Origin: a virus
Lineage: Duplodnaviria > Caudoviricetes
DNA: 35,774 nucleotides
Direction: 5' to 3' (one strand)
Virus record (IMG/VR): IMGVR_UViG_3300032257_000067
Span: 1-35,774 of that record
In this document: piece by piece, positions 2,971-35,774 of the stretch
Layout: each line of letters starts with the position of its first letter
Position numbering within the stretch: the first letter of the stretch is position 1
Notes under the pieces: generated by a model
Seen by the model: only the letters and a program-made list of their open reading frames with translations
Databases searched by the model: none
What the model was told of the DNA's origin: nothing
Program-made: the position numbers and the translations under genes

Positions 2971-3366
2971 ATGGCCAAACAATCAATAGACAGCTTAAGC
3001 ATTGCCACGGTATCCATCCCGACCCGTATAGATCCGCCATCGGACCTAAGCGCACGACAAAAAGAGCTTTGGCGCGACGTGATGAATACCAAGCCGCCTG
3101 AATGGTTTGAAGATGATACTTACCCCTTGTTAAGGGCGTATGTGACTCACGTCGATACTTATGAGCGACTAAGCCAGGAAATACAAACCTATGACTTAAG
3201 CGACCCAGCGGTTGATCGTTTAATTAAGTTGCAGGACTTACAAGGTCGAGCTATGGGAAACCTGGCGGTCAAGATGCGCTTGACTCAACAATCACGCTAT
3301 ACCCCAAAAGCCGCAGCAACCGCCAACAAGAAAGCCGCCTCAGGTAAAAAACCGTGGGAGAAGTAG
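2971..3366 (+). CDS. terS: Terminase small subunit
   Basis: PPSDLS....LW and LAVKMRLTQQSR motifs; directly precedes the large subunit. Confidence 0.85.
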   Translation: MAKQSIDSLSIATVSIPTRIDPPSDLSARQKELWRDVMNTKPPEWFEDDTYPLLRAYVTHVDTYERLSQEIQTYDLSDPAVDRLIKLQDLQGRAMGNLAVKMRLTQQSRYTPKAAATANKKAASGKKPWEK

Positions 3367-4874
3367 AGGAGGTTACAGGCGAAGACTGCATCAACTGGAT
3401 CGAGACTAATTGTCACGTCCCAGACGGAAAAGACGTTGGAAAGCCGGTCAAGCTTAGAGAATGGCAAAAGGATATTATTCGCGGAATTTATGACAGCCCT
3501 ACGCGTAGAGCTATCATCAGTTTCGGGCGTAAGAATGCAAAGACTACGTTAAGTGCCTTTTTGTTATTGCTTCACTTGGTCGGCCCCAAGCACAGGGTAA
3601 ACTCTCAGCTATACAGTGCAGCCCAATCCAGAGATCAGGCCGCGATCTTGTTTGCTTTGGCGGCCAAGATTGTGAGAATGTCCAAAGACTTGTCACAGTA
3701 TGTGATTGTTAGGGATTCTCAGAAACAATTGTACTGCCAGGAATTAGGCACGATATACAAAGCCCTATCAGCCGAGGTATCAACTTCGTATGGTTTGTCC
3801 TCTGTGTTTACGGTCCATGATGAATTAGGACAGGCCAAAGGCCCGCACAGTGAATTATACGAAGCCCTTGAGACGTCAAGCGGTGCCCATGAGAATCCGT
3901 TAAGTATTGTGATATCTACCCAGGCACCGACTGATGGCGATTTAATGTCTATCTTGATCGATGATGCAAAAGCAGGACACGATCCGAAAACAAAGTTATG
4001 GCTATACACGGCAGACGAAGAGATCGATCCCTTTTCTGAAGGCGCCATTATCCAGGCTAATCCTGCTTATGGTGATTTCTTAAACAAGGATGAAATCTTA
4101 GACAAGGCCAACACCGCTAAACGCATGCCTTCAAGCGAGGCCAGCTATCGAAACCTTGTACTTAACCAACGGGTTGAAGCGGCAGATCCATTTGTTACCA
4201 AACGTATCTGGGAGCAAAACAAGACCAAGCCTGAATCCTATGAAGGTTGTGACGTATACGGGGGATTAGACTTATCCACAGCCCGCGACTTAACCTCACT
4301 CACCTTGATGAATTACCGGGAGTCGGCGTGGGACGTCCATCCGACGTTTTGGCTACCCTATGAAGGCTTGAGAGAGAAATCAAAAGCAGACCGGGTTCCC
4401 TATGATGTATGGGCAAAACAAGGTTACTTGCAAACTTGCCCAGGGCCATCGGTGGAATATGAGCACGTGGCGAAGTTTATGCGAGGCGTGTTTGATCGGT
4501 GCAATGTTAAAGCCATTGCCTTTGATCGCTGGGGTATGAAGCACTTGATCCCCTGGCTAGAAAAGGCCGGGTTTAATGAAAGTGAATTAGAATTATTCGT
4601 TCCGTTTGGTCAAGGCTTTCAATCCATGAGTCCAGCACTTAGAGACTTAGAATCCTTGCTGCTGACTTCAGGGCTAAGACACGGCGGGCACCCTATTTTG
4701 AACATGTGCATGATGAATGCCCGCGTGCAAACTGACCCGGCAGGGAATCGAAAGTTTACTAAGCAGAAGTCATCCGGGCGCATTGATGGCGCGGTGACAT
4801 TAGCAATGGCAGCGGGAACCATCCCAGACGCGCCACAAGCCGAATACATAACAGGAACGATAACAGCCTTATGA
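3354..4874 (+). CDS. terL: Terminase large subunit
   Basis: GRKNAKT Walker A, VHDELG Walker B, ISTQ, GGLDLS nuclease motif, GRIDGAV. Confidence 0.95.
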   Translation: MGEVEEVTGEDCINWIETNCHVPDGKDVGKPVKLREWQKDIIRGIYDSPTRRAIISFGRKNAKTTLSAFLLLLHLVGPKHRVNSQLYSAAQSRDQAAILFALAAKIVRMSKDLSQYVIVRDSQKQLYCQELGTIYKALSAEVSTSYGLSSVFTVHDELGQAKGPHSELYEALETSSGAHENPLSIVISTQAPTDGDLMSILIDDAKAGHDPKTKLWLYTADEEIDPFSEGAIIQANPAYGDFLNKDEILDKANTAKRMPSSEASYRNLVLNQRVEAADPFVTKRIWEQNKTKPESYEGCDVYGGLDLSTARDLTSLTLMNYRESAWDVHPTFWLPYEGLREKSKADRVPYDVWAKQGYLQTCPGPSVEYEHVAKFMRGVFDRCNVKAIAFDRWGMKHLIPWLEKAGFNESELELFVPFGQGFQSMSPALRDLESLLLTSGLRHGGHPILNMCMMNARVQTDPAGNRKFTKQKSSGRIDGAVTLAMAAGTIPDAPQAEYITGTITAL

Positions 4875-6139
4875 TGTTCTTCAAATCAAAGCAGCCCGAG
4901 CAGAAATCAGCCGAATCCGAGCAAAAGGCGGCTACCACCGCCCTAGATCGTCTGCTCGCTACTGTCGCGGGAACCGGGGTGGCCGTAACCCCTGAGACCT
5001 GTACGCAATCGCCGACCGTTCAAGCCGTGGTCACCGCGATATCGCGACGCATGGCGATCACACCGATCCATATTTTCCAGACTAAGGAGAATAACGGTCG
5101 AGCAACCAAGGAGAAAATACCGAGTCATCCGGTAGCAAAGCTGTTGAAACAGCCGAACGAATGGCAGACCGGCGTCGATTATATTGGCGATATGGCCTCT
5201 GTTTTGGTTAGGTACGGTCGGTTTATTGCGATCAAAGGCCAGGGCAATACCGGCCCGATTAGAAAACTCTATCCGGTCAGACCTTCAGAGGTGGCGATTA
5301 AACAGGACGACATCTCAGCACCGCCTATGTTTGAACGTAACGGCCAAAGCTGGCCCATGAGTAAGATCCATTATGTCCGGGGACCGGCTCAGGACTTTAT
5401 CACGGGCGACTCACCTGTTGAAAAGATTAAAACCGCGATTGGGGTCGAGATTGCGGTCGAAGAGTATGGCGCGAGCTTTTTCAATAATGGCGCGGTGCCT
5501 TTGCAGGTCTTTGGATACGCAGAGGGGATGGGCTTCAAAACCCCGGATGAGGAAAAGACGTTTTTGCAAGATTTTAAAGCTCTATTCTCAGGCGCTAAAC
5601 GTCACAACGCGTTGATGCTCCCTAAAGGGATTGAACAGAAGCCAGGGCAAAGTGTTGAGAATAACAAAGCCCAGTTTTTAGAGACTAGAAAACTTTATCA
5701 GACCATTATCGCCGGGGCGTGGGGTGTTCCCCCTCACCTGGTCGGCAATCTTGAGAACGGCCACTACAACAACGTGGAGCAACAGGATAAAGACTTCACT
5801 TTAAATGTTATTATGCCGTATGTGCGTTATGTAGAGTCGGCAATGGAAAGAGACTTATTAACCACTGAAGACCGAAACAAGGGGATCGTGATTCGCTTTA
5901 ATATGGATTCAGTGTTAAGAGCGTCGTTTGAAGAGCGACAAGCAGGCCTCGCGGTGCAGCGAATGAATGGCATTATAAATGCGAATGACTGGCTCGAGAT
6001 TGAAGGCAGAAACCCCCGTCCTGAAGGCGATGATTATTATTATTCAGCCAACTTAATCAAAGAGGGCGAAGAGTTAGATCGCGGGCGCCCTGACCCACAA
6101 AATATTAAAGATCCAGAAGGTGATCCAGATGACGAATAA
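4871..6139 (+). CDS. HK97-family portal protein
   Basis: G.SP, FFNNGAVP, AQFLETRK, IAGAWGVPPHLVG, NNVEQQ motifs. Confidence 0.95.
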   Translation: MMFFKSKQPEQKSAESEQKAATTALDRLLATVAGTGVAVTPETCTQSPTVQAVVTAISRRMAITPIHIFQTKENNGRATKEKIPSHPVAKLLKQPNEWQTGVDYIGDMASVLVRYGRFIAIKGQGNTGPIRKLYPVRPSEVAIKQDDISAPPMFERNGQSWPMSKIHYVRGPAQDFITGDSPVEKIKTAIGVEIAVEEYGASFFNNGAVPLQVFGYAEGMGFKTPDEEKTFLQDFKALFSGAKRHNALMLPKGIEQKPGQSVENNKAQFLETRKLYQTIIAGAWGVPPHLVGNLENGHYNNVEQQDKDFTLNVIMPYVRYVESAMERDLLTTEDRNKGIVIRFNMDSVLRASFEERQAGLAVQRMNGIINANDWLEIEGRNPRPEGDDYYYSANLIKEGEELDRGRPDPQNIKDPEGDPDDE

Positions 6140-6875
6140 AAACATAACTTGCCCGCTAGAGATTAAAGCCTTAAGCAAACGCGAGTTTGAGGGCTACGGC
6201 TCGATTTTTGGCAATAAGGATTTAGGGGATGATGTCGTGGTCCAGGGGGCATTTAGACGGACGCTTTCAGAGCATAAAGGCGAAGACACCCTACCGATGA
6301 TGTTCTGGATGCACGATCCCTCACGGATTCCGGGCAAGTGGCTAGAAATGGAAGAAGATTCTCAAGGCTTATACGTCAAAGGCGTGTTAGCCGATACCCC
6401 GTTAGGGAATGAGATCCATACCTTATTGGGCATGAAGGCAGTATCGGGGCTTTCAATCGGGTATATCCCGAGAGATCAGGACTTCAACAATGACGGCGTG
6501 AGGCTGATCAAAGATGCAGACCTGTTAGAAACCTCGATTGTATCTATCCCAATGAACCCCTTGGCGCAAATAGCACATGCTAAGTCACGGCTTTCAGAGC
6601 GTGGTGAATATGTGCCAGGCCAAGACGAACTCGCGTCCTTGAAACGTGAATGCGAGCAGTTTTTCAGAGAGAAGGGTTTTAGTAAAAGCCTTTCCACAAT
6701 GTACGTTTCCAATATGTTCAAGTCCGGTGTGACATCGGATGAACCCAAGCCTGACATCAGCGGAGTGAGTCTGGATGATGAAATCAGAGCACAGTTAGCG
6801 GTTGACTCTTACAAGGAGAATCAAACGTTAGATTTTATCAATCAATTTAGACAGAGGACCTTTAAAAATGGCTAA
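6120..6875 (+). CDS. HK97-type prohead protease
   Basis: FEGYGSIFGNKD, MFWMHD..RIPGKW, GLSIGY, ETSIVSIPMNPLA. Confidence 0.95.
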   Translation: MIQMTNKNITCPLEIKALSKREFEGYGSIFGNKDLGDDVVVQGAFRRTLSEHKGEDTLPMMFWMHDPSRIPGKWLEMEEDSQGLYVKGVLADTPLGNEIHTLLGMKAVSGLSIGYIPRDQDFNNDGVRLIKDADLLETSIVSIPMNPLAQIAHAKSRLSERGEYVPGQDELASLKRECEQFFREKGFSKSLSTMYVSNMFKSGVTSDEPKPDISGVSLDDEIRAQLAVDSYKENQTLDFINQFRQRTFKNG

Positions 6876-8172
6876 TGTTATTAATGAAGCACTAGAGGAA
6901 ATCGGCAAAGACGTGATCGAGATGCGTTCCGCGCACGAAAAATCCCTTGAAGAGCTTAAAAAAGAAAACAAAACCCGCGCCGCTGAGCTGGAACAACAGT
7001 CAGACCGCGCTAATTCTCACATCGACGCACTGACGGAACAGGTCAAAGGTCTGGTCGCGCAGAAAGAAAAAGACCAGAATCGGATCGAAATCCTGGAAGC
7101 GGTTGCAGACCGTCCGAAAGGCACCAAGACCGAGCAGTTGGAAGCCAAGCAGCTTAATGTGTTTGAAAAATGCGTCCGCGCTGGTATGGTCGATCAACAG
7201 CTTAACGCTGAATACAAAGACCTAACCGACAAGATCCACAAAGCCAAGATGGAAGCTAAAGACGTCGTTATTGGTACGGCTATTCTTGGTGGCAACGCGG
7301 TTCCTGAGGTGATCTCAACTTCTATCGAGAAGCTGGTTGTTAATCATTCCGCTATTGTCGATGAAGTTAAAATCGTTAATTCTGGAACATCAGACTATAA
7401 CGAACTGGTTACCATTCGCGGTGCTAACGGTGGCTTTGTGGCTGAAGACGGATCACGCACTAAAACCACCAACCCGAACCTTCGCAAAGTGACTGTGACC
7501 CACGGTGAGCTGTACGCTTATCCTAAAGTTAGCAACTGGTCACTTAATGACATTTTCTTTAATGTCGTTAACTGGTTGCAAGAAGACGTCGCGGATACCT
7601 TCGCGGTTTCACTGTCTACCGCGATTCACGCGGGCAACGGTACTAATCAACCTACAGGGATGACAAACTCAGCACCGACCAACGGTGACGACTACGCTTC
7701 ACCTTTACGTGCTGCGGCGGTTTACGAGTACATTGCAACAGGTAGCTCGCCGACTTCGACCGCACTTGGCGGTGATGATCTGATCGATCTACAGGTTGCA
7801 CTGAAAGCGCGTTATCAAGCTAATGCTAAGTGGACCATGAATTCGACTACAGTCGGCGCAGTGCGTAAGCTGAAAGATAGTAATAACCAGTACCTATGGC
7901 AGCCCTCTTATCAAGCGGGCCAGCCTGATATGTTACTAGGTAAACCTATCTTTATCTGGGAAGACATGGCGAACGACGGCGCGGCAAACGCGTTGCCTGT
8001 TGCTTATGGCGACTTTGCGCGGGCGTATGTCTTAGCGCGAATCGGCTCTATGGGCATGGTACGTGACGAAGTGACTGCACCTGGTTATGTTAACTTCTTC
8101 ACTTATCAGCGTTATGGTGGTATTCCACTTAATAACGACGCTGTTAAGTTCTTGAAATTAGCCGCTAGCTAA
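6868..8172 (+). CDS. HK97-fold major capsid protein with N-terminal scaffold (delta) domain
   Basis: Coiled-coil N-terminus; GG.AVPE, GNGTNQPTG, LKDSNNQYLWQP, LLGKPI, YGDF, RYGG. Confidence 0.95.
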   Translation: MANVINEALEEIGKDVIEMRSAHEKSLEELKKENKTRAAELEQQSDRANSHIDALTEQVKGLVAQKEKDQNRIEILEAVADRPKGTKTEQLEAKQLNVFEKCVRAGMVDQQLNAEYKDLTDKIHKAKMEAKDVVIGTAILGGNAVPEVISTSIEKLVVNHSAIVDEVKIVNSGTSDYNELVTIRGANGGFVAEDGSRTKTTNPNLRKVTVTHGELYAYPKVSNWSLNDIFFNVVNWLQEDVADTFAVSLSTAIHAGNGTNQPTGMTNSAPTNGDDYASPLRAAAVYEYIATGSSPTSTALGGDDLIDLQVALKARYQANAKWTMNSTTVGAVRKLKDSNNQYLWQPSYQAGQPDMLLGKPIFIWEDMANDGAANALPVAYGDFARAYVLARIGSMGMVRDEVTAPGYVNFFTYQRYGGIPLNNDAVKFLKLAAS

Positions 8173-8173
8173 G

Positions 8174-8806
8174 TTGTTTAGGCACTACCAAGACAAGATG
8201 ATCCGGGGTTACGAGGACAAGACCTTTGTCCTTGTGGCTTCCGGGCCTTCTTTAACACAGGAACAGGTTGATCAATGCCGGGGAAAGGCCCAGATTGTTG
8301 TTATAAACGACAATTACAAGATTGCCCCATTTGCCGATCACTTATACGCGTGTGACCAGACGTGGTGGCTATGGCATGAAGACGATCCCGAATTATTAGC
8401 CTTTAAAGGCAAGAAATGGACCCAGACATCAAGCTGGGACGACGAGATCCGCAAGCGGATTAGAAAGAAACATGATTTAACATTTATTCAAAGCAAGGCC
8501 GAGCCGGGACTCTCTACCGATCCCAATATCATCCACCAAGGCAGCAATTCAGGCTATCAAGCGATCAATTTGGCTTACCACTTAGGGGCTAAAAAGATTC
8601 TGTTAATCGGTTATGATATGCAGCGCACTAATGATAAAGCGCATTGGTTTGGCGATCACCCTGATAAGGGTCAAACGAATTACAGCAAATTTACTAAGTA
8701 TTACAACACGTTAGCAAAGCAGGATTTAGACGTAGAGATTATTAACTGTACTACACAGACGGCGTTAACGTGCTTCCCTAGAAAGGAATTAAAAGACGTC
8801 TTGTAA
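8174..8806 (+). CDS. DUF115/Maf-like putative glycosyltransferase, paralog 1
   Basis: ASGPSL, VIND, LYACD..WW, NSGYQAINLAYHLGAKKILLIGYDM, HWFGDH, INCT. Start may be ATG 8198. Confidence 0.7.
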   Translation: MFRHYQDKMIRGYEDKTFVLVASGPSLTQEQVDQCRGKAQIVVINDNYKIAPFADHLYACDQTWWLWHEDDPELLAFKGKKWTQTSSWDDEIRKRIRKKHDLTFIQSKAEPGLSTDPNIIHQGSNSGYQAINLAYHLGAKKILLIGYDMQRTNDKAHWFGDHPDKGQTNYSKFTKYYNTLAKQDLDVEIINCTTQTALTCFPRKELKDVL

Positions 8807-8829
8807 TGCTGTGACCATTGGTCTATATT
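8801..8829 (+). promoter_or_regulatory. Sigma70-like promoter of the RAMP cassette with a palindromic operator in the spacer
   Basis: TTGTAA (8801-8806), 17 bp, TATATT (8824-8829); inverted repeat GACCA-T-TGGTC at 8813-8823. Confidence 0.6.
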
Positions 8830-8879
8830 ATCTCTCAGAAGCCGTGGCGATTGGCCGTGGCGTACAGGAGAGAAAGACA

Positions 8880-9482
8880 ATGGCTAAAGCTAAAACAGAT
8901 GCAGAAATTTCCATAATGGAAATCAAGCAAGGTGAGATAGAATTTTGTATTAAAAGCACTTCCCCGTTGATTTACCATCGAATGGGTGAGAAAGCAAAAA
9001 GAGAGCTTTTATTCCCAAAAGGCCGCAAGACAGCAGCCGATAAAGCAACAAGTATTAAACATAATCCTATCGAAGAGTATCGAGATACGGTTTACCGTAG
9101 CAAGCAAAAAGAAACCCTGCTAATGGTTCCGTCTGTTATGTTTAAGGCTGCTATTAGTAGCGCAGCACTAGACATCCCTGGCGCAACTAAAGCGCAAATA
9201 GGTCGCTTGGTTTGGGTGATGGGTGATGAGGTTCCTGTTTATGGGGTTCCTGAGTTATTAATGTCTACGGTTAGATCGTCCGACATGAACCGCACTCCAG
9301 ATATACGCACAAGAGCCATCTTGCCAGAATGGGCTTGCTCTATTCGAGTTAGATATATCAAGCCAAACATCAGCGAGCAATCTATTGTTAATTTGGTTGC
9401 GTCTGCCGGTATCATTACAGGCATCGGTGACTATCGACAGCAGAAGGGTAAAACCTCTTATGGTCAATTTGAGCTTGGTTAA
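8880..9482 (+). CDS. Stand-alone RAMP/Cas7-like RNA-binding protein (VIPR-like effector candidate), 200 aa
   Basis: AGGAG RBS before ATG 8880. RAMP-type motif order: IKSTSPLIYH, LMVPSVMFKAAI, and C-terminal Gly-rich loop GIGDYRQQKGKTSYGQF. Immediately followed by the pentamer array. Confidence 0.7.
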   Translation: MAKAKTDAEISIMEIKQGEIEFCIKSTSPLIYHRMGEKAKRELLFPKGRKTAADKATSIKHNPIEEYRDTVYRSKQKETLLMVPSVMFKAAISSAALDIPGATKAQIGRLVWVMGDEVPVYGVPELLMSTVRSSDMNRTPDIRTRAILPEWACSIRVRYIKPNISEQSIVNLVASAGIITGIGDYRQQKGKTSYGQFELG

Positions 9483-9645
9483 GTTGAGTCTGTTCTGTTA
9501 AGTTCGGTTAAGCTAAGTTTGGTTTTGTCTGTTGTGTTTTGTTTGGTTATGTTGCGATTGGTTTGGTTATGTTGTGCTTTGTCTGCTGGGTTTGGTTGCG
9601 CCGCGTTGAGTTGGGATGGGTTACATTCGGTTACGTTGAGTCTGT
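9473..9645 (+). ncRNA. GTT-NN pentamer array 1 (putative guide-RNA array): short unit 9473-9491, unit A 9492-9530, unit B 9531-9584, unit C 9585-9643
   Basis: Strict 5-nt periodicity with a near-constant triplet (mostly GTT) plus a variable dinucleotide. Units A, B and C have 7, 10 and 11 pentamers, each closed by GTCT. RNA role is inferred. Confidence 0.7.
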
Positions 9646-9834
9646 ATGGAAAAAGATAAATTAAAAGAATTAAGAAAAAAGGTCGGCTTATCATTAGCTG
9701 ATGCTGCAAAGCGCGTACACGTAACACCTAGAACATGGGCAAGGTATGAGGCTGGCGATAGGTCAATCCCAGATGGCGTTGTCCATTTATTTTGTTTAAC
9801 TAGTGGGATTAATCCCGATGAATATTTGAAATGA
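9646..9834 (+). CDS. Small XRE-type HTH regulator (Aca-like)
   Basis: LRKKVGLSLADAAKRVHVTPRTWARYEAGDRSIP helix-turn-helix; 62 aa; sits between the two arrays. Confidence 0.85.
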   Translation: MEKDKLKELRKKVGLSLADAAKRVHVTPRTWARYEAGDRSIPDGVVHLFCLTSGINPDEYLK

Positions 9835-9892
9835 CTTGGTTAAGTTCCGTTGAGTTTAGTTTTGTTGAGTTCTGTTTAGTTTGGTCTGTTTA
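9834..9892 (+). ncRNA. GTT-NN pentamer array 2 (unit D 9834-9887)
   Basis: ACTTG, then nine GTT-NN pentamers, then GTCT and one further GTTTA. Confidence 0.7.
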
Positions 9893-9894
9893 AT

Positions 9895-10521
9895 ATGTTA
9901 GCTGTTATCTTGGGCACTGGCCCCAGCCTCACCCCTGACCAGCTTGAACACGTCAAGCAGGCGCAAGCAGCGGGCAAGTGTAAAGTCTTTGGCATGAATA
10001 ACACTTGGATGGATGCCAAGCTAGACGTTTTTCTTGCCTGTAATCCTGAATACTATTCCCACTTTTGGGATAAGGGCTTAAAGGATTACCCATGCGAGAA
10101 GTGGACGTGGGACAAGTCAACGGCAACCAAATACGATATAACTCATATCCACGGCAAATGGGGCGACGGTTTTAGTAAGACTCACTTGCACTATGGGCAT
10201 TCAAGCGGCTTCCAGGCACCCGGTCTGGCTTATTACATGGGATTTAGAAAGCTAATCCTTTTAGGGTACGATATGGGCTATGCCCCAGACTATAACGGGA
10301 AAACCAGGCAGATTGGGAGTAAGCCTAGACACTATTTCGGCGAATATCCCTCGCAGCTTCAGCACTGGCCATCAGTAAAGGTCAAAGACGGGGTTTTCAC
10401 GGAATTGATTGAGCAATTCGAGAAGGTCAAAGAAATTAACACCGACTTAGAGATTGTTAACTGTACACCGGGGAGCTATATGACCTGTTTCCCCATGATG
10501 GATATTAAAGAGGCTTTATGA
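9895..10521 (+). CDS. DUF115/Maf-like putative glycosyltransferase, paralog 2
   Basis: GTGPSL, GMNN, LACN, SSGFQAPGLAYYMGFRKLILLGYDM, HYFGEY, VNCT; colinear with the 8174 protein. Confidence 0.7.
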   Translation: MLAVILGTGPSLTPDQLEHVKQAQAAGKCKVFGMNNTWMDAKLDVFLACNPEYYSHFWDKGLKDYPCEKWTWDKSTATKYDITHIHGKWGDGFSKTHLHYGHSSGFQAPGLAYYMGFRKLILLGYDMGYAPDYNGKTRQIGSKPRHYFGEYPSQLQHWPSVKVKDGVFTELIEQFEKVKEINTDLEIVNCTPGSYMTCFPMMDIKEAL

Positions 10522-10599
10522 TCCCTATCAATGTTTATTGGGCTATATATGTATGGGACGCTACTTTGTTCGCGATCTATGGGAGTGGTTAGAGTTATT

Positions 10600-10914
10600 A
10601 TGAAGGTTAAGACAGTCGCAGCGACAACAAATAAAACAGAGAGACCCTTCTCAGCCAACAACCTAGATCAATTAGCGAAAACCGCGCCAGGGGTTCCGGT
10701 TACGGTAGACTTTGATCCAGATCAGGTTATTGGTAAAATTATCTCTGCAAAGGTTGTCAATGGAGAGCTTGAAATAATAGCCGATATCAAAAATATTGAT
10801 TTAACAGATCAATATATCGTGCCAGGTTATAGGCTGCCAAACTATGATAGCGTAACATTTGGCTTGACACGCGACCCTGTTGATCTATCTGTAAGTAAAG
10901 CAGAAGAACTATGA
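10600..10914 (+). CDS. Hypothetical protein, weak resemblance to a prohead-protease-like fold
   Basis: PVTVDFD...IGKIISAKVVNGEL pattern; ATG 10600 preferred over 10531; ATGA overlap with the next gene. Confidence 0.45.
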   Translation: MKVKTVAATTNKTERPFSANNLDQLAKTAPGVPVTVDFDPDQVIGKIISAKVVNGELEIIADIKNIDLTDQYIVPGYRLPNYDSVTFGLTRDPVDLSVSKAEEL

Positions 10915-11489
10915 TCCCCGTCTACATCGGCATATCTAAACGCTTTGACATGATCAAAGGCATGACCGAGCGCAGCATTCTCGCGCACACGAAAGAAAAG
11001 GTAGAGATTAAACACCTTTACCCGGTCACAGAAAGCGGGTGTACTGGTTTTAGTGACGTACGTTTTCAAATTGAATACGGGATATATCTAGATTGTGACA
11101 TGATTGTGTTGGCGGATATTGCTGAGCTATGGGCTTACCGCAAGAAAGATAAGTATGTCTGTATGCGTGACGGATCGACCGAGGTCGCGGTGATTGATTT
11201 CAGGAATAAGAAAAGCCCTTGTAGAAACAAGAAGCAAATCAACGCCTTACCAAAAGCATTTGATATTTCTTTGGACTGGAACACAGAAGACTATAATTAT
11301 TTTCCGAATAAGCCTCTCCCCAAGGACATGAAGCTATTTCATTTCACCAGTTTAGCGACACAGCCTTGGTTATATAAGCACCCTAATAATGAGGCGGTTG
11401 CACTGTATGAACAGTACGCAGCCAAACAGAAAGCCAAAAAGAAAGCCAAAAAGAAAAGGGCCAAGCGTGTCAAAAACCAGACTGTTTAA
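10911..11489 (+). CDS. GT-A (GT8-like) glycosyltransferase with Lys-rich tail
   Basis: IPVYIG, TGFS..RF, IYLDCDMIVLADIAELW (DXD), WN, LFHFTSLATQPW. Confidence 0.8.
   Translation: MIPVYIGISKRFDMIKGMTERSILAHTKEKVEIKHLYPVTESGCTGFSDVRFQIEYGIYLDCDMIVLADIAELWAYRKKDKYVCMRDGSTEVAVIDFRNKKSPCRNKKQINALPKAFDISLDWNTEDYNYFPNKPLPKDMKLFHFTSLATQPWLYKHPNNEAVALYEQYAAKQKAKKKAKKKRAKRVKNQTV
11421..11456 (+). repeat. 3 x 12-bp tandem repeat GCCAAA(C/A)AGAAA encoding AKQK-AKKK-AKKK
   Basis: Directly visible. Confidence 0.8.
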
Positions 11490-12138
11490 AGGGTCGCTTC
11501 CATGGTCCAACAGGTCAGATTGGCTAATGCCTGCAAACAGTCATCGCCTAGAAGTTAGTTTTACAAAAGGCCCAAACGATGTAGACGCGGCGCTTGAAAT
11601 GCTTTTGCCGTTATTAAAGAAGCGGCGAACCTGTATCCAGGCGGGGGGATGTATTGGTATTTGGCCCTTAAGACTTTCGCAAGTATTCGATCATGTGCAT
11701 GCGTTTGAATTAGATCCAATTAATTATGAGTGTTTGATTCATAACGCAGACGAGGAAAATATAACCCCCATTCATTCAGCTTTAAGTTATAAGGCAGGCG
11801 AAACGGTGGGCTATAGGCTGGACGAAGGCGAAAGGCAAAACCCCGGGGCGACTTATGTCATCAATGAAGGGGATGTCCCTACGGTAAAGATTGACGATCT
11901 TGGATTGGATGATGTTGATTTAATTTATCTGGATATTGAGGGGTCCGAGTCCTTAGCCCTACTAGGAGCAACGGAAACGATCAAACGCTGTAAGCCGATT
12001 ATCGGGTTAGAGGACAAAGGACACCACATAAAGCAAGGCAATCCTGATCCGGTTAAATATTTGATTAAGCAGCTTGATTACCGCGTACACGGTAAGCCCT
12101 CACGATTAGATGTCATATTGGTGCCGAATGATGAATGA
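11467..12138 (+). CDS. FkbM-family SAM-dependent methyltransferase
   Basis: IQAGGCIGIW, VHAFELDPINYECL, IDDLGL..VDLIYLDIEGSE..AL.GA..TI...KPII. Start uncertain (11389 or GTG 11467). Confidence 0.85.
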   Translation: MSKTRLFKGSLPWSNRSDWLMPANSHRLEVSFTKGPNDVDAALEMLLPLLKKRRTCIQAGGCIGIWPLRLSQVFDHVHAFELDPINYECLIHNADEENITPIHSALSYKAGETVGYRLDEGERQNPGATYVINEGDVPTVKIDDLGLDDVDLIYLDIEGSESLALLGATETIKRCKPIIGLEDKGHHIKQGNPDPVKYLIKQLDYRVHGKPSRLDVILVPNDE

Positions 12139-12856
12139 TCTGACCGTCTTTTGTGTTTACTGGGGCGACAAGTATGACAAGGGCTATGTCTACGCTTTAC
12201 GAGATGCCGTTGAGGTTAATCTGTCTGTCCCTCATCGGTTTGTTTGCATTACTACTGATTATTTCAAGGGTATTGAGACACGCAAACCTTATGCGCCTTA
12301 TTCCGGTTGGTGGTCTAAGCTTAATCTGTTTGCACCTCGCATGGCGACCGGACCAAGCCTCTATTTTGATCTTGATGTTGTTATCACTGGCAATCTAGAC
12401 TATCTGGTTGAGTACACAGAGCCAAAGGAATATATAAACCATAGGTACAACATAACTGAGGTTGCATACTTAGCGGCCCCGGCTAATTGGGCGCAATCAG
12501 GACATGGTGGGATTCAATCCTCGGTAATGGCCTGGGGCGGGAATTGGACACACCCTTTTGATCAATTCAAAAGCCAGTGGCCCGATATTAGGGAGCGCTT
12601 ATGGGGTGATCAGGAGTACCTCTGGGAATTGTTAGGAGATAACTGGACGCGACTGCCTCATGTGGGGTCGTATAAGTACCACGTAAGCCCCGCACAAGCC
12701 ATACCAGACGATATGGCGGTATGTGTATTCCACGGTAAACCGGACCCTCACGAGGTAACAGACCCTTGCATATTGTCTTACACATCAGCCCTACGCTCGT
12801 ACATCAGCACGAGCACAGCGAATGGTTTACAGAAGGCCTCAAGCGCCACGGCTTAA
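12128..12856 (+). CDS. GT-A glycosyltransferase
   Basis: CVYWGDKY, FVCITTD, GWWSKLNLF, LYFDLDVVI (DXD), SSVMAW, GDQEYL, VFHGKPDPH. Confidence 0.8.
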   Translation: MMNDLTVFCVYWGDKYDKGYVYALRDAVEVNLSVPHRFVCITTDYFKGIETRKPYAPYSGWWSKLNLFAPRMATGPSLYFDLDVVITGNLDYLVEYTEPKEYINHRYNITEVAYLAAPANWAQSGHGGIQSSVMAWGGNWTHPFDQFKSQWPDIRERLWGDQEYLWELLGDNWTRLPHVGSYKYHVSPAQAIPDDMAVCVFHGKPDPHEVTDPCILSYTSALRSYISTSTANGLQKASSATA

Positions 12857-13416
12857 ACCTCGATATCACAACCGACCCCCACAAAGAAGGGGACGTTCAT
12901 ATCGTCAGCGGGCCACACTATGCCAAGCGGTATTGGCTGGATCACCCAAAAACCTTACTCATTGACAGGGCTTATCATCCGAATAAGCAGATCAAATCTG
13001 GTCAGTGGGTAAGTGAGGATTATGTCTCGGTAGGCTGGATGAATAAGGACGGCGGCAGGGATTTTAGAAAAACAGAATCTAGGGGATCGTATTCGATCCA
13101 GCACCAAGCCGGTGACAAAGGGACTATTTTTCTAAAAGACTACGGCGGCCCCGAAGCAATGGCGGATACCGTGAGACTTCACCCAGCCGAAAAACAGTAT
13201 CCAGAATCCTTAGAAGATGCCCTTAAACGTCACAAGACCGCTATCGGGTTTAGGACGACGGCCCTTGTTAAAGCGGGTTTAATGGGCTTAGATATTGTAT
13301 GCTTAGACAAACAAAATATTATGGCCCAGCCGGATTGGTTGGAATTATTACCGAGTGCTGACTGGCACTATTCAGAGATTCAATCCGGGGAAGCATGGGA
13401 GTTCTTATGTCAATAA
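12766..13416 (+). CDS. Putative GT-B / capsule-biosynthesis-like glycosyltransferase
   Basis: LLIDRAY, VSVGW, RLHP, SLEDAL....AIGFRTTALVKAGLMG, WHYSEIQSGEAW; lies in the glycan block. Confidence 0.55.
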   Translation: MHIVLHISPTLVHQHEHSEWFTEGLKRHGLNLDITTDPHKEGDVHIVSGPHYAKRYWLDHPKTLLIDRAYHPNKQIKSGQWVSEDYVSVGWMNKDGGRDFRKTESRGSYSIQHQAGDKGTIFLKDYGGPEAMADTVRLHPAEKQYPESLEDALKRHKTAIGFRTTALVKAGLMGLDIVCLDKQNIMAQPDWLELLPSADWHYSEIQSGEAWEFLCQ

Positions 13417-35213: not shown

Positions 35214-35774
35214 TGGCTGAGTCTATATCCATTGTTGATCCTGACACTGGAGGCAGCCCAGCAAGGGACTACGCCAGCCTGAGCGCATGGGAAGCCGCTG
35301 AGGGCGCTGACATGGGCGCTGATGATCCGGTCGCTGAGTTACGCTGCACCTCCGGATCGGCAGATACGACCAATGTCACAATCAACGGTTTTAGCAATTA
35401 CGGCAAGATCATTATTCGGGATTATGACTCCACCGGGCGGGCCTCGACTGAATGGAGCACTAGCGTATATCGTCATTCGGGCAGTAGTTATCAGCCCATT
35501 AATTTAGCCTTAACCGATATTGAATTATGGAACTTACAGGTTGAACACAATCCTACCAGTGATGGTCATGCCTGCGTTCAATGGACTAATGTCGATATTT
35601 TAATGGACGGCTGTCACATCACCACCACCGATGTAACTAATTCCAACAACCGAGCTATAGATGCAGGCTACGTCACCGGCAACACGCTAAGCACAATTAG
35701 AAACTGCATTGTAGATGGCTTTAGCGGGACTACTCATACAGGGATTTTCCTCAATTATTATGGTACGTCTGGCG
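35213..35774 (+). CDS. 5' part of the junction-spanning fibre/spike protein
   Basis: MAESISIVDPDTGGSPARDYASLSAWEAAEG...STIRNCIVDG; open to the window end and continues at the window start. Confidence 0.85.
   Translation, partial: MAESISIVDPDTGGSPARDYASLSAWEAAEGADMGADDPVAELRCTSGSADTTNVTINGFSNYGKIIIRDYDSTGRASTEWSTSVYRHSGSSYQPINLALTDIELWNLQVEHNPTSDGHACVQWTNVDILMDGCHITTTDVTNSNNRAIDAGYVTGNTLSTIRNCIVDGFSGTTHTGIFLNYYGTSG
35688..35774. repeat. Terminal direct repeat (87 bp), copy 2
   Basis: Identical to 1-87. Confidence 0.95.

Follow-up and report, generated by a model that had tools for sequence, protein, structure and literature searches.

A VIPR-type guide array in an HK97-type phage includes a unit that decodes to the major capsid family of its relatives

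VIPR systems were published in 2026 by Yoon et al. (10.64898/2026.04.26.720920). That work already describes the 1-nt skip, its alignment with the wobble position, the argument that this prevents synonymous escape, and staggered arrays; the fig. S18 legend gives their 1-nt overlap. Published guides have 9-16 repeats on a GGY scaffold, and a change of G2 abolished silencing in SUSP1 (fig. S12 legend and text). Structures are given in a second paper (10.64898/2026.04.26.720927). Published type II VIPR systems have a single Vipr on each repeat, pair in gapped fashion with double-stranded DNA and cause a PAM-free transcriptional block, and the literature also describes filament assembly, a gapped R-loop and silencing from either strand. 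The targets named in the text of Yoon et al. are prophage lysis-lysogeny regulators, a satellite and other VIPR loci, and the papers report no self-matches of at least 80%. Codon-phase targeting, wobble skipping and escape-proofing are already published and are not new here.

Two later papers describe systems that are also close to our locus. Lopez et al. (10.64898/2026.10.15.759431) put the wobble argument to the test in 119 satellites and documented orphan guides that use the Vipr of another phage. As at our locus, these solo vrRNAs outlast the loss of vipr-vap sequence, have wobble-aligned targets in relatives and match self less well than non-self. However, the entire vipr-vap1 segment is deleted there, whereas 200 vipr codons remain here, and the targets given there are vipr, vrRNAs, satellites and REP elements instead of a capsid and a head-module gene. 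A paper on non-canonical VIPR arrays (10.64898/2026.10.21.760802) reports 21 clusters in which, as here, a 5-nt array with a fixed triplet other than GGY lies beside Vipr-like proteins; the examples it names are GAC, CAC, WGT and TGH, 'GTT' is absent from its main text, and its passages on these arrays give no decoded targets. The passages of Lopez et al. that were examined describe no capsid target for a vrRNA, and the supplement PDF of Yoon et al. has 0 occurrences of 'capsid', although the Data S3 target lists may hold some. The GTT motif or capsid targets may also be in figs. S15 or S17 of Yoon et al. or in fig. S10 of the paper on non-canonical arrays.

The window, that is, the whole stretch of DNA analysed here (35,774 bases), is an entire record and belongs to an HK97-type phage. 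An ORF family scan identified head genes for terminase, portal and protease as well as the capsid within 3354-8172. Two MptE-like genes flank a cassette formed by the vipr ORF, an array with a 5-nt period, a 62-aa HTH gene and the last array unit (Table 1). Since the two MptE-like genes are adjacent in most relatives where both are seen, we regard the cassette as an insertion. Among 42 capsid-neighbour loci, many of them short, three (L070, L073 and L099) carry a vipr gene and an array at the cassette site or just downstream. Homologs of the 62-aa HTH gene lie within or next to the arrays of L070 (3779-3943) and L073 (7690-7845), and this small gene, common to the arrays of two Vipr lineages, is a possible accessory or regulator.

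Table 1. Features of the cassette and of the sites to which its guides decode
Feature	Position	Strand	Evidence
HK97-type major capsid gene, 434 aa	6868..8172	+	PF05065 E 4e-63; TIGR01554
Own allele of unit C site (capsid aa 189-199, GFVAEDGSRTK), 17/22 read bases	7432..7464	+	sequence, gapped scan
First MptE-like gene, adjoining the second in relatives without the cassette	8174..8806	+	PF01973 below cut-off; synteny
vipr homolog, 200 aa, RAMP/Cas7-like fold, C-terminal ~60 aa of close homologs absent	8880..9482	+	profile, Foldseek, lengths
Four-repeat guide-unit remnant over vipr stop codon, likely deletion junction	9473..9492	+	sequence; homolog alignment
Guide unit A, 7 NN, no target found	9492..9531	+	window, relatives' loci, profiles
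Guide unit B, 10 NN, no target found	9531..9585	+	window, relatives' loci, profiles
Guide unit C, 11 NN and terminal GTCTG, decodes to capsid-family site aa 189-199	9585..9644	+	gapped scans, profiles
62-aa XRE-type helix-turn-helix gene within array	9646..9834	+	weak HTH-family matches below cut-off; homologs
Guide unit D, 10 NN and terminal GTCTG, decodes to family of next gene	9834..9888	+	gapped scans, profiles
Second MptE-like gene, 208 aa, from a virus-associated family with unknown function	9895..10521	+	family scan, homologs
Own allele of unit D site (aa 49-58, CNPEYYSHFW), 15/20 read bases	10039..10068	+	gapped scan

Around the cassette, two MptE-like, glycosyltransferase-8-like and FkbM methyltransferase genes occupy 8174-13416, between the capsid and the head-tail connector; this module, partly kept in relatives, is perhaps a virion-modification module. 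A 12-nt tandem repeat at 11420-11456 encodes a Lys/Ala-rich C-terminal tail. No long direct repeats besides the 5-nt array were found within 8500-12000, and the promoter and terminator scan of the locus stayed at shuffle level.

At the protein level, we built a Vipr profile from the vipr ORF and 32 IMG/VR relatives. Its sole PDB sequence match was 36pp_D, the SUSP1 Vipr (E 1.2e-5), with the alignment covering the G-loop and the end of the thumb. R138, D177, W178 and R179 of SUSP1 Vipr align with R145 and the G-loop D, W and R of the profile, and the window protein reads D184, Y185 and R186 at these last three positions. The predicted model (pLDDT 81) had Csm/Cmr RAMP subunits as its best Foldseek matches. 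Based on the profile match and the RAMP fold, this locus is a VIPR system as Yoon et al. define it. Neither vipr nor the array had a match in Pfam, NCBIfam or Rfam. The RAMP fold with a G-loop is shared with the Cas7/Csm3/Cmr backbone of class 1 CRISPR, but the guide code here is gapped, and the protein, with its thumb and G-loop, lies outside any CRISPR locus. The features of a class 1 CRISPR-Cas locus were not seen: there was no CRISPR array, no cas family among the 30 ORFs scanned and no Rfam match. Vipr homologs of about 27-32% identity were also seen in 31 phage-collection records, mostly from Mycobacterium and Gordonia phages, and the 30 listed are annotated as hypothetical.

The array beside vipr has four units of 7-11 variable dinucleotides (NN), each within a tandem 5-nt repeat that starts with a fixed triplet. 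Units terminate in GTCTG, and the final G is the first G of the next unit. Unit C reads GCT-gg GTT-tg GTT-gc GCC-gc GTT-ga GTT-gg GAT-gg GTT-ac ATT-cg GTT-ac GTT-ga and then GTCTG, which ends at 9644. The locus resembles published VIPR systems in its Vipr RAMP homolog, 5-nt repeats, variable NN, 1-base skip on the wobble position, phage origin, staggered units and likely targets in other mobile elements. Unlike them, it has no structured tail evident after the guide units, a Vipr shorter than its own subfamily, a unit (A) below the published repeat range, and the major capsid of close kin as a likely target.

The scaffold is the other difference. GTT makes up 32/46 triplets, GTC 5/46 and GCT 4/46, while GGY accounts for 0/46; with GTT or GTC in 37 of the 46, the array is in clean phase. 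The alternatives to GGY in Yoon et al. are NNNGG, YNNNG and NNNNG. Since the same authors allow 'a related consensus', we consider the GTY scaffold a variant of VIPR, and units C and D taken together fix its register as G-T-Y-N-N. Across 31 loci of the same Vipr subfamily, which are related and not independent, the GTY share drops as G+C content rises (rho -0.55), and GTT-rich arrays were found in L034, L035, L038 and L042. In an unrelated phage (L118:1-807), a staggered GTT array with GTCTG ends lies directly 5' of a distant Vipr-like gene, with terminase genes adjoining.

The preliminary description of this DNA had proposed that unit C, read with each wobble base skipped, spells a motif of the major capsid protein. 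Its NN string agrees with the sequence at 9585-9644, and the 17/22 match that it reported in the phage's own capsid is indeed the best site of the window at a 1-base skip with the arrays masked. This site lies in the capsid frame and has at least one matching base in every dinucleotide; the second-best site reaches 14/22. We recalculated its uniform-base chance estimate of ~0.03 as 0.029. Shuffled versions of unit C reached 17 in 13/1000 and 20/1000 cases (P 0.013-0.02), and in the gap-size check that it had suggested, gaps of 0, 2 and 3 yielded nothing in the window (P 0.63-1.0). By itself, the 17/22 self-match is weak evidence, and it fails over the 16 unit-by-gap tests. Moreover, 10 of 188 guides scored on their own loci had a gap-1 self-match at E<0.05, which is about chance level.

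It is the family-profile test, and not the self-match, that lifts the capsid match above chance. On a codon-position 1-2 profile built from 119 capsid homologs, self excluded, unit C scored 24.1 bits in sense orientation at aa 189. Over the whole capsid and both orientations, this score was reached by 1/20,000 dinucleotide shuffles and 0/20,000 base shuffles, or about 0.005 when corrected for genome size (x27) and for four guides. The proposed decoding to the capsid family, in sense, in codon phase and with a 1-base skip, is therefore borne out; the capsid and the neighbouring gene were picked for testing after the self-matches were known. On nine gene profiles of IMG/VR relatives (2,687 codons, both orientations), which include the capsids of L070 and L073 and exclude the window, unit C scored 25.2 bits (0/1000 shuffles). 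In the 42 capsid-neighbour loci, it had 34 gap-1 sites of at least 16/22 against a null mean of 9.6 (0/150), with gaps 0, 2 and 3 at null level; shuffled guides and these gaps were assessed on the window and the relatives' loci. Guide-like tracts from 38 unrelated Vipr loci scored 12.2 bits at best, and 0/166 reached 17 bits. The skipped base falls on the wobble position at 7432, at 10039 and at the relatives' sites, all in frame.

All decoded residues of unit C occur in the capsid family at their own column. At the five positions that differ from the phage's own capsid, the guide residues were counted in the 119 homologs as W 101, T 47, A 17, E 7 and G 4. The closest homolog to the decoded string was P0108 (SWAAEGGTRSE), with 9/11 residues.

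Perfect matches had been expected in the capsid genes of related phages; we found 0 in IMG/VR and 0 in GTDB, and those in JGI metagenomes were not capsids. The exact 22-base pattern occurred there at four loci that represent two distinct sites. Site 1 (three loci) lies within a 104-aa ORF, presumably for an M48/YgjP-type protein, with the skipped base at codon position 2, and site 2 lies on a GC-rich contig, where the decoded frame contains a TGA. Chance would give 0.08-0.27 exact patterns per 1e11 bases at 60-70% GC, and we rejected both sites as chance. The 16-base core of unit C had 18 matches in IMG/VR (0/18 capsids), and two GTDB sites at 21/22 were both outside capsids, so near-perfect matches do arise by chance in large collections. 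With family-informed degenerate patterns, 3/4 IMG/VR loci were capsids at 18/22, one of them being the L108 contig, against 0/4 in GTDB; these patterns derive from the capsid family and make no enrichment test.

For 35 distinct capsid alleles of relatives with DNA, scores ranged from 13 to 18: three at 18/22, nine at 17/22 and 23 lower. The own capsid is thus among the better matches of the sampled alleles. The papers set their target cut-off at 80% of NN bases, and unit C falls on both sides of it by a thin margin, with 82% for the best capsid (18/22) and 77% for self. The claim that the guide targets the capsid gene of a related competitor is supported for the capsid family, through the profile, but an actual competitor was not found, the best sampled allele being 18/22. 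Whether five mismatches would spare self depends on the mismatch threshold.

Unit D shows a similar pattern on the family of the neighbouring MptE-like gene (21.9 bits, 3/20,000 shuffles, about 0.03 corrected). It matches L087 and L097 at 18/20 (90%) vs. 15/20 (75%) for self, with all five self mismatches in the 3' half of the 10039-10068 site, and the MptE-like protein P0126 agrees with the decoded unit at 9/10 residues. The exact unit D pattern was found 0 times in IMG/VR. Joined without gaps, its NN give an 18/20 self-match at 35510-35529 (0/1000 and 1/1000 shuffles, E about 2e-4); values as low as this also appeared with gaps of 1 and 3 in the full set of 752 tests, so this is probably a chance match. 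P0126, an intact Vipr (P0251, 77% identical) and a capsid (P0012) have the same longest-contig figure of 14,930 bases and may share a contig.

Guides of related phages also decode to the capsid. A different Vipr lineage (25-29% identity) is present in the same head module at L070:2394-4025, L073:6379-8204 and L099:12651-14049, in cassettes that include a partner gene and staggered GGY arrays whose ends read GGCAG. We parsed 15 guides from these arrays, with some L070 and L099 units left out. L070_3648 and L073_8135 decode to capsid aa 411 and aa 248 (6/20,000 and 0/20,000 shuffles). The former matches relatives at 18/20 vs. 10/20 in its own capsid, and the latter at 20/26 vs. 16/26. On the nine gene profiles, four of the 19 clade guides scored 24-25 bits, all in sense and with 0/1000 shuffles, and the other 15 (units A and B and 13/15 guides of relatives) had no match, at 10.9 bits or less. 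Elsewhere, the guide-like tracts L002:9059 (19/22, E 1e-4) and L032:11940 (21/26, E 5e-4) have strong gap-1 matches in their own loci and are possibly self- or kin-targeting.

The preliminary description missed that vipr is shortened and its partner gene lost, which may make the sparing of self moot. The window Vipr has 200 aa, compared with 249-302 aa in 119/119 other homologs and 261-263 aa in those that are 85-88% identical to it, both among the matches listed; all 33 IMG/VR relatives checked have 51-87 extra residues. The homologs run on as ELV..., whereas the window Vipr stops at ELG* within the four-repeat guide remnant. In a predicted full-length homolog, the absent part forms four helices (pLDDT mostly 82-98). 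The gene that lies 3' of vipr in relatives, a partner and presumably the usual vap, had no match anywhere in the window. This arrangement likely arose by a deletion that ran from the 3' end of vipr into the array and also removed the vap gene. The vipr-array junction is contained in one contig (depth 187), possibly the source contig, and no contig from three other runs, which cover parts of the locus, bridges it. Vipr lineages that end right after the G-loop exist in L073 and L118, so the 200-aa protein may still work; alternatively, with vipr cut short and vap apparently lost, the guides may be orphans. The loss of the Vipr C-terminus and the apparent absence of vap are new here.

We consider it probable that unit C is a VIPR-type guide that silences the capsid gene of a related phage, and that the guides work through the shortened Vipr or one supplied in trans. 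Its NN spell codon positions 1-2 of a conserved capsid site of the phage clade, and the unit likely evolved to direct a Vipr filament onto the capsid gene of a related, unsampled phage. The array is presumably transcribed on the + strand, in which case the guide would pair with the template strand. A kin phage would be the target, self would be tolerated at a 77% match, and the late head genes of the relative would be silenced during co-infection or superinfection. The resident Vipr was likely cut by the deletion that also took the vap gene. Today, the guides may act with the shortened Vipr or, more likely, as orphans that would depend on intact Vipr supplied by a co-infecting relative.

The guides could also be a dead remnant, truly recording past targeting of kin and now unused, which is compatible with the preferred explanation on the identity of the target. 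We regard this as possible but doubtful. The truncated vipr, the missing vap match and the failure to find any relative closely matching units A, B or C fit it well. However, the phase of the array is clean and the vipr frame is open and near to intact homologs, so any loss at the locus would be recent, and Lopez et al. document orphan guides that use the Vipr of another phage.

It is unlikely that the guide is aimed at the own or ancestral capsid, either as late-gene autoregulation or as autoimmunity relieved by target drift and vipr truncation. In its favour, just 3/35 sampled relatives better the self-match, the vipr gene is truncated, and the own site departs from the family, with 14/424 windows equally deviant and D194 present in 0/119 homologs. 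However, the own F, V and S are common to the closest homologs, and the guide has the W and T of sister subclades. For unit D, L070_3648 and L073_8135, the match to relatives clearly exceeds that to self, and the own sites show no unusual deviation; published VIPR work reports no self-hit of at least 80%. We dropped an escape from self-targeting through unusual residues, since the own site is deviant for unit C alone and not for unit D or the guides of relatives.

A chance fit of a G/C-rich dinucleotide string to a Gly/Ala/Thr-rich motif, to which the modest shuffle P of the self-match and the chance 21-22/22 sites of large collections would lend themselves, is very improbable given that one in 20,000 order-shuffled guides of the same composition reached the family score, that none of the 166 other guide-like tracts came near it, and that three further guides show the same sense, in-phase pattern.

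More tentatively, the VIPR cassettes of this clade, from at least two Vipr lineages, may shuttle through the head module and act against the capsids of kin, and this phage may have given up a working effector while keeping GTY guides that hijack the Vipr of a co-infecting relative against its own capsid and head-module genes.

Unit C and its locus are a real and well-supported variant of a known system. If our reading is true, they would provide natural evidence that guides on a GTY scaffold follow the register and the skip known from GGY, and would represent a likely intermediate towards orphan guides. The narrow difference between self and non-self (17/22 vs. 18/22) would pose a sharp discrimination problem and offer a natural setting in which to gauge tolerance of mismatches. 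The target classes of VIPR would be extended by the major capsid of close kin, which three guides of this phage clade reach independently. The reading would also show that protein-family profiles can decode guides whose target has not been sequenced.
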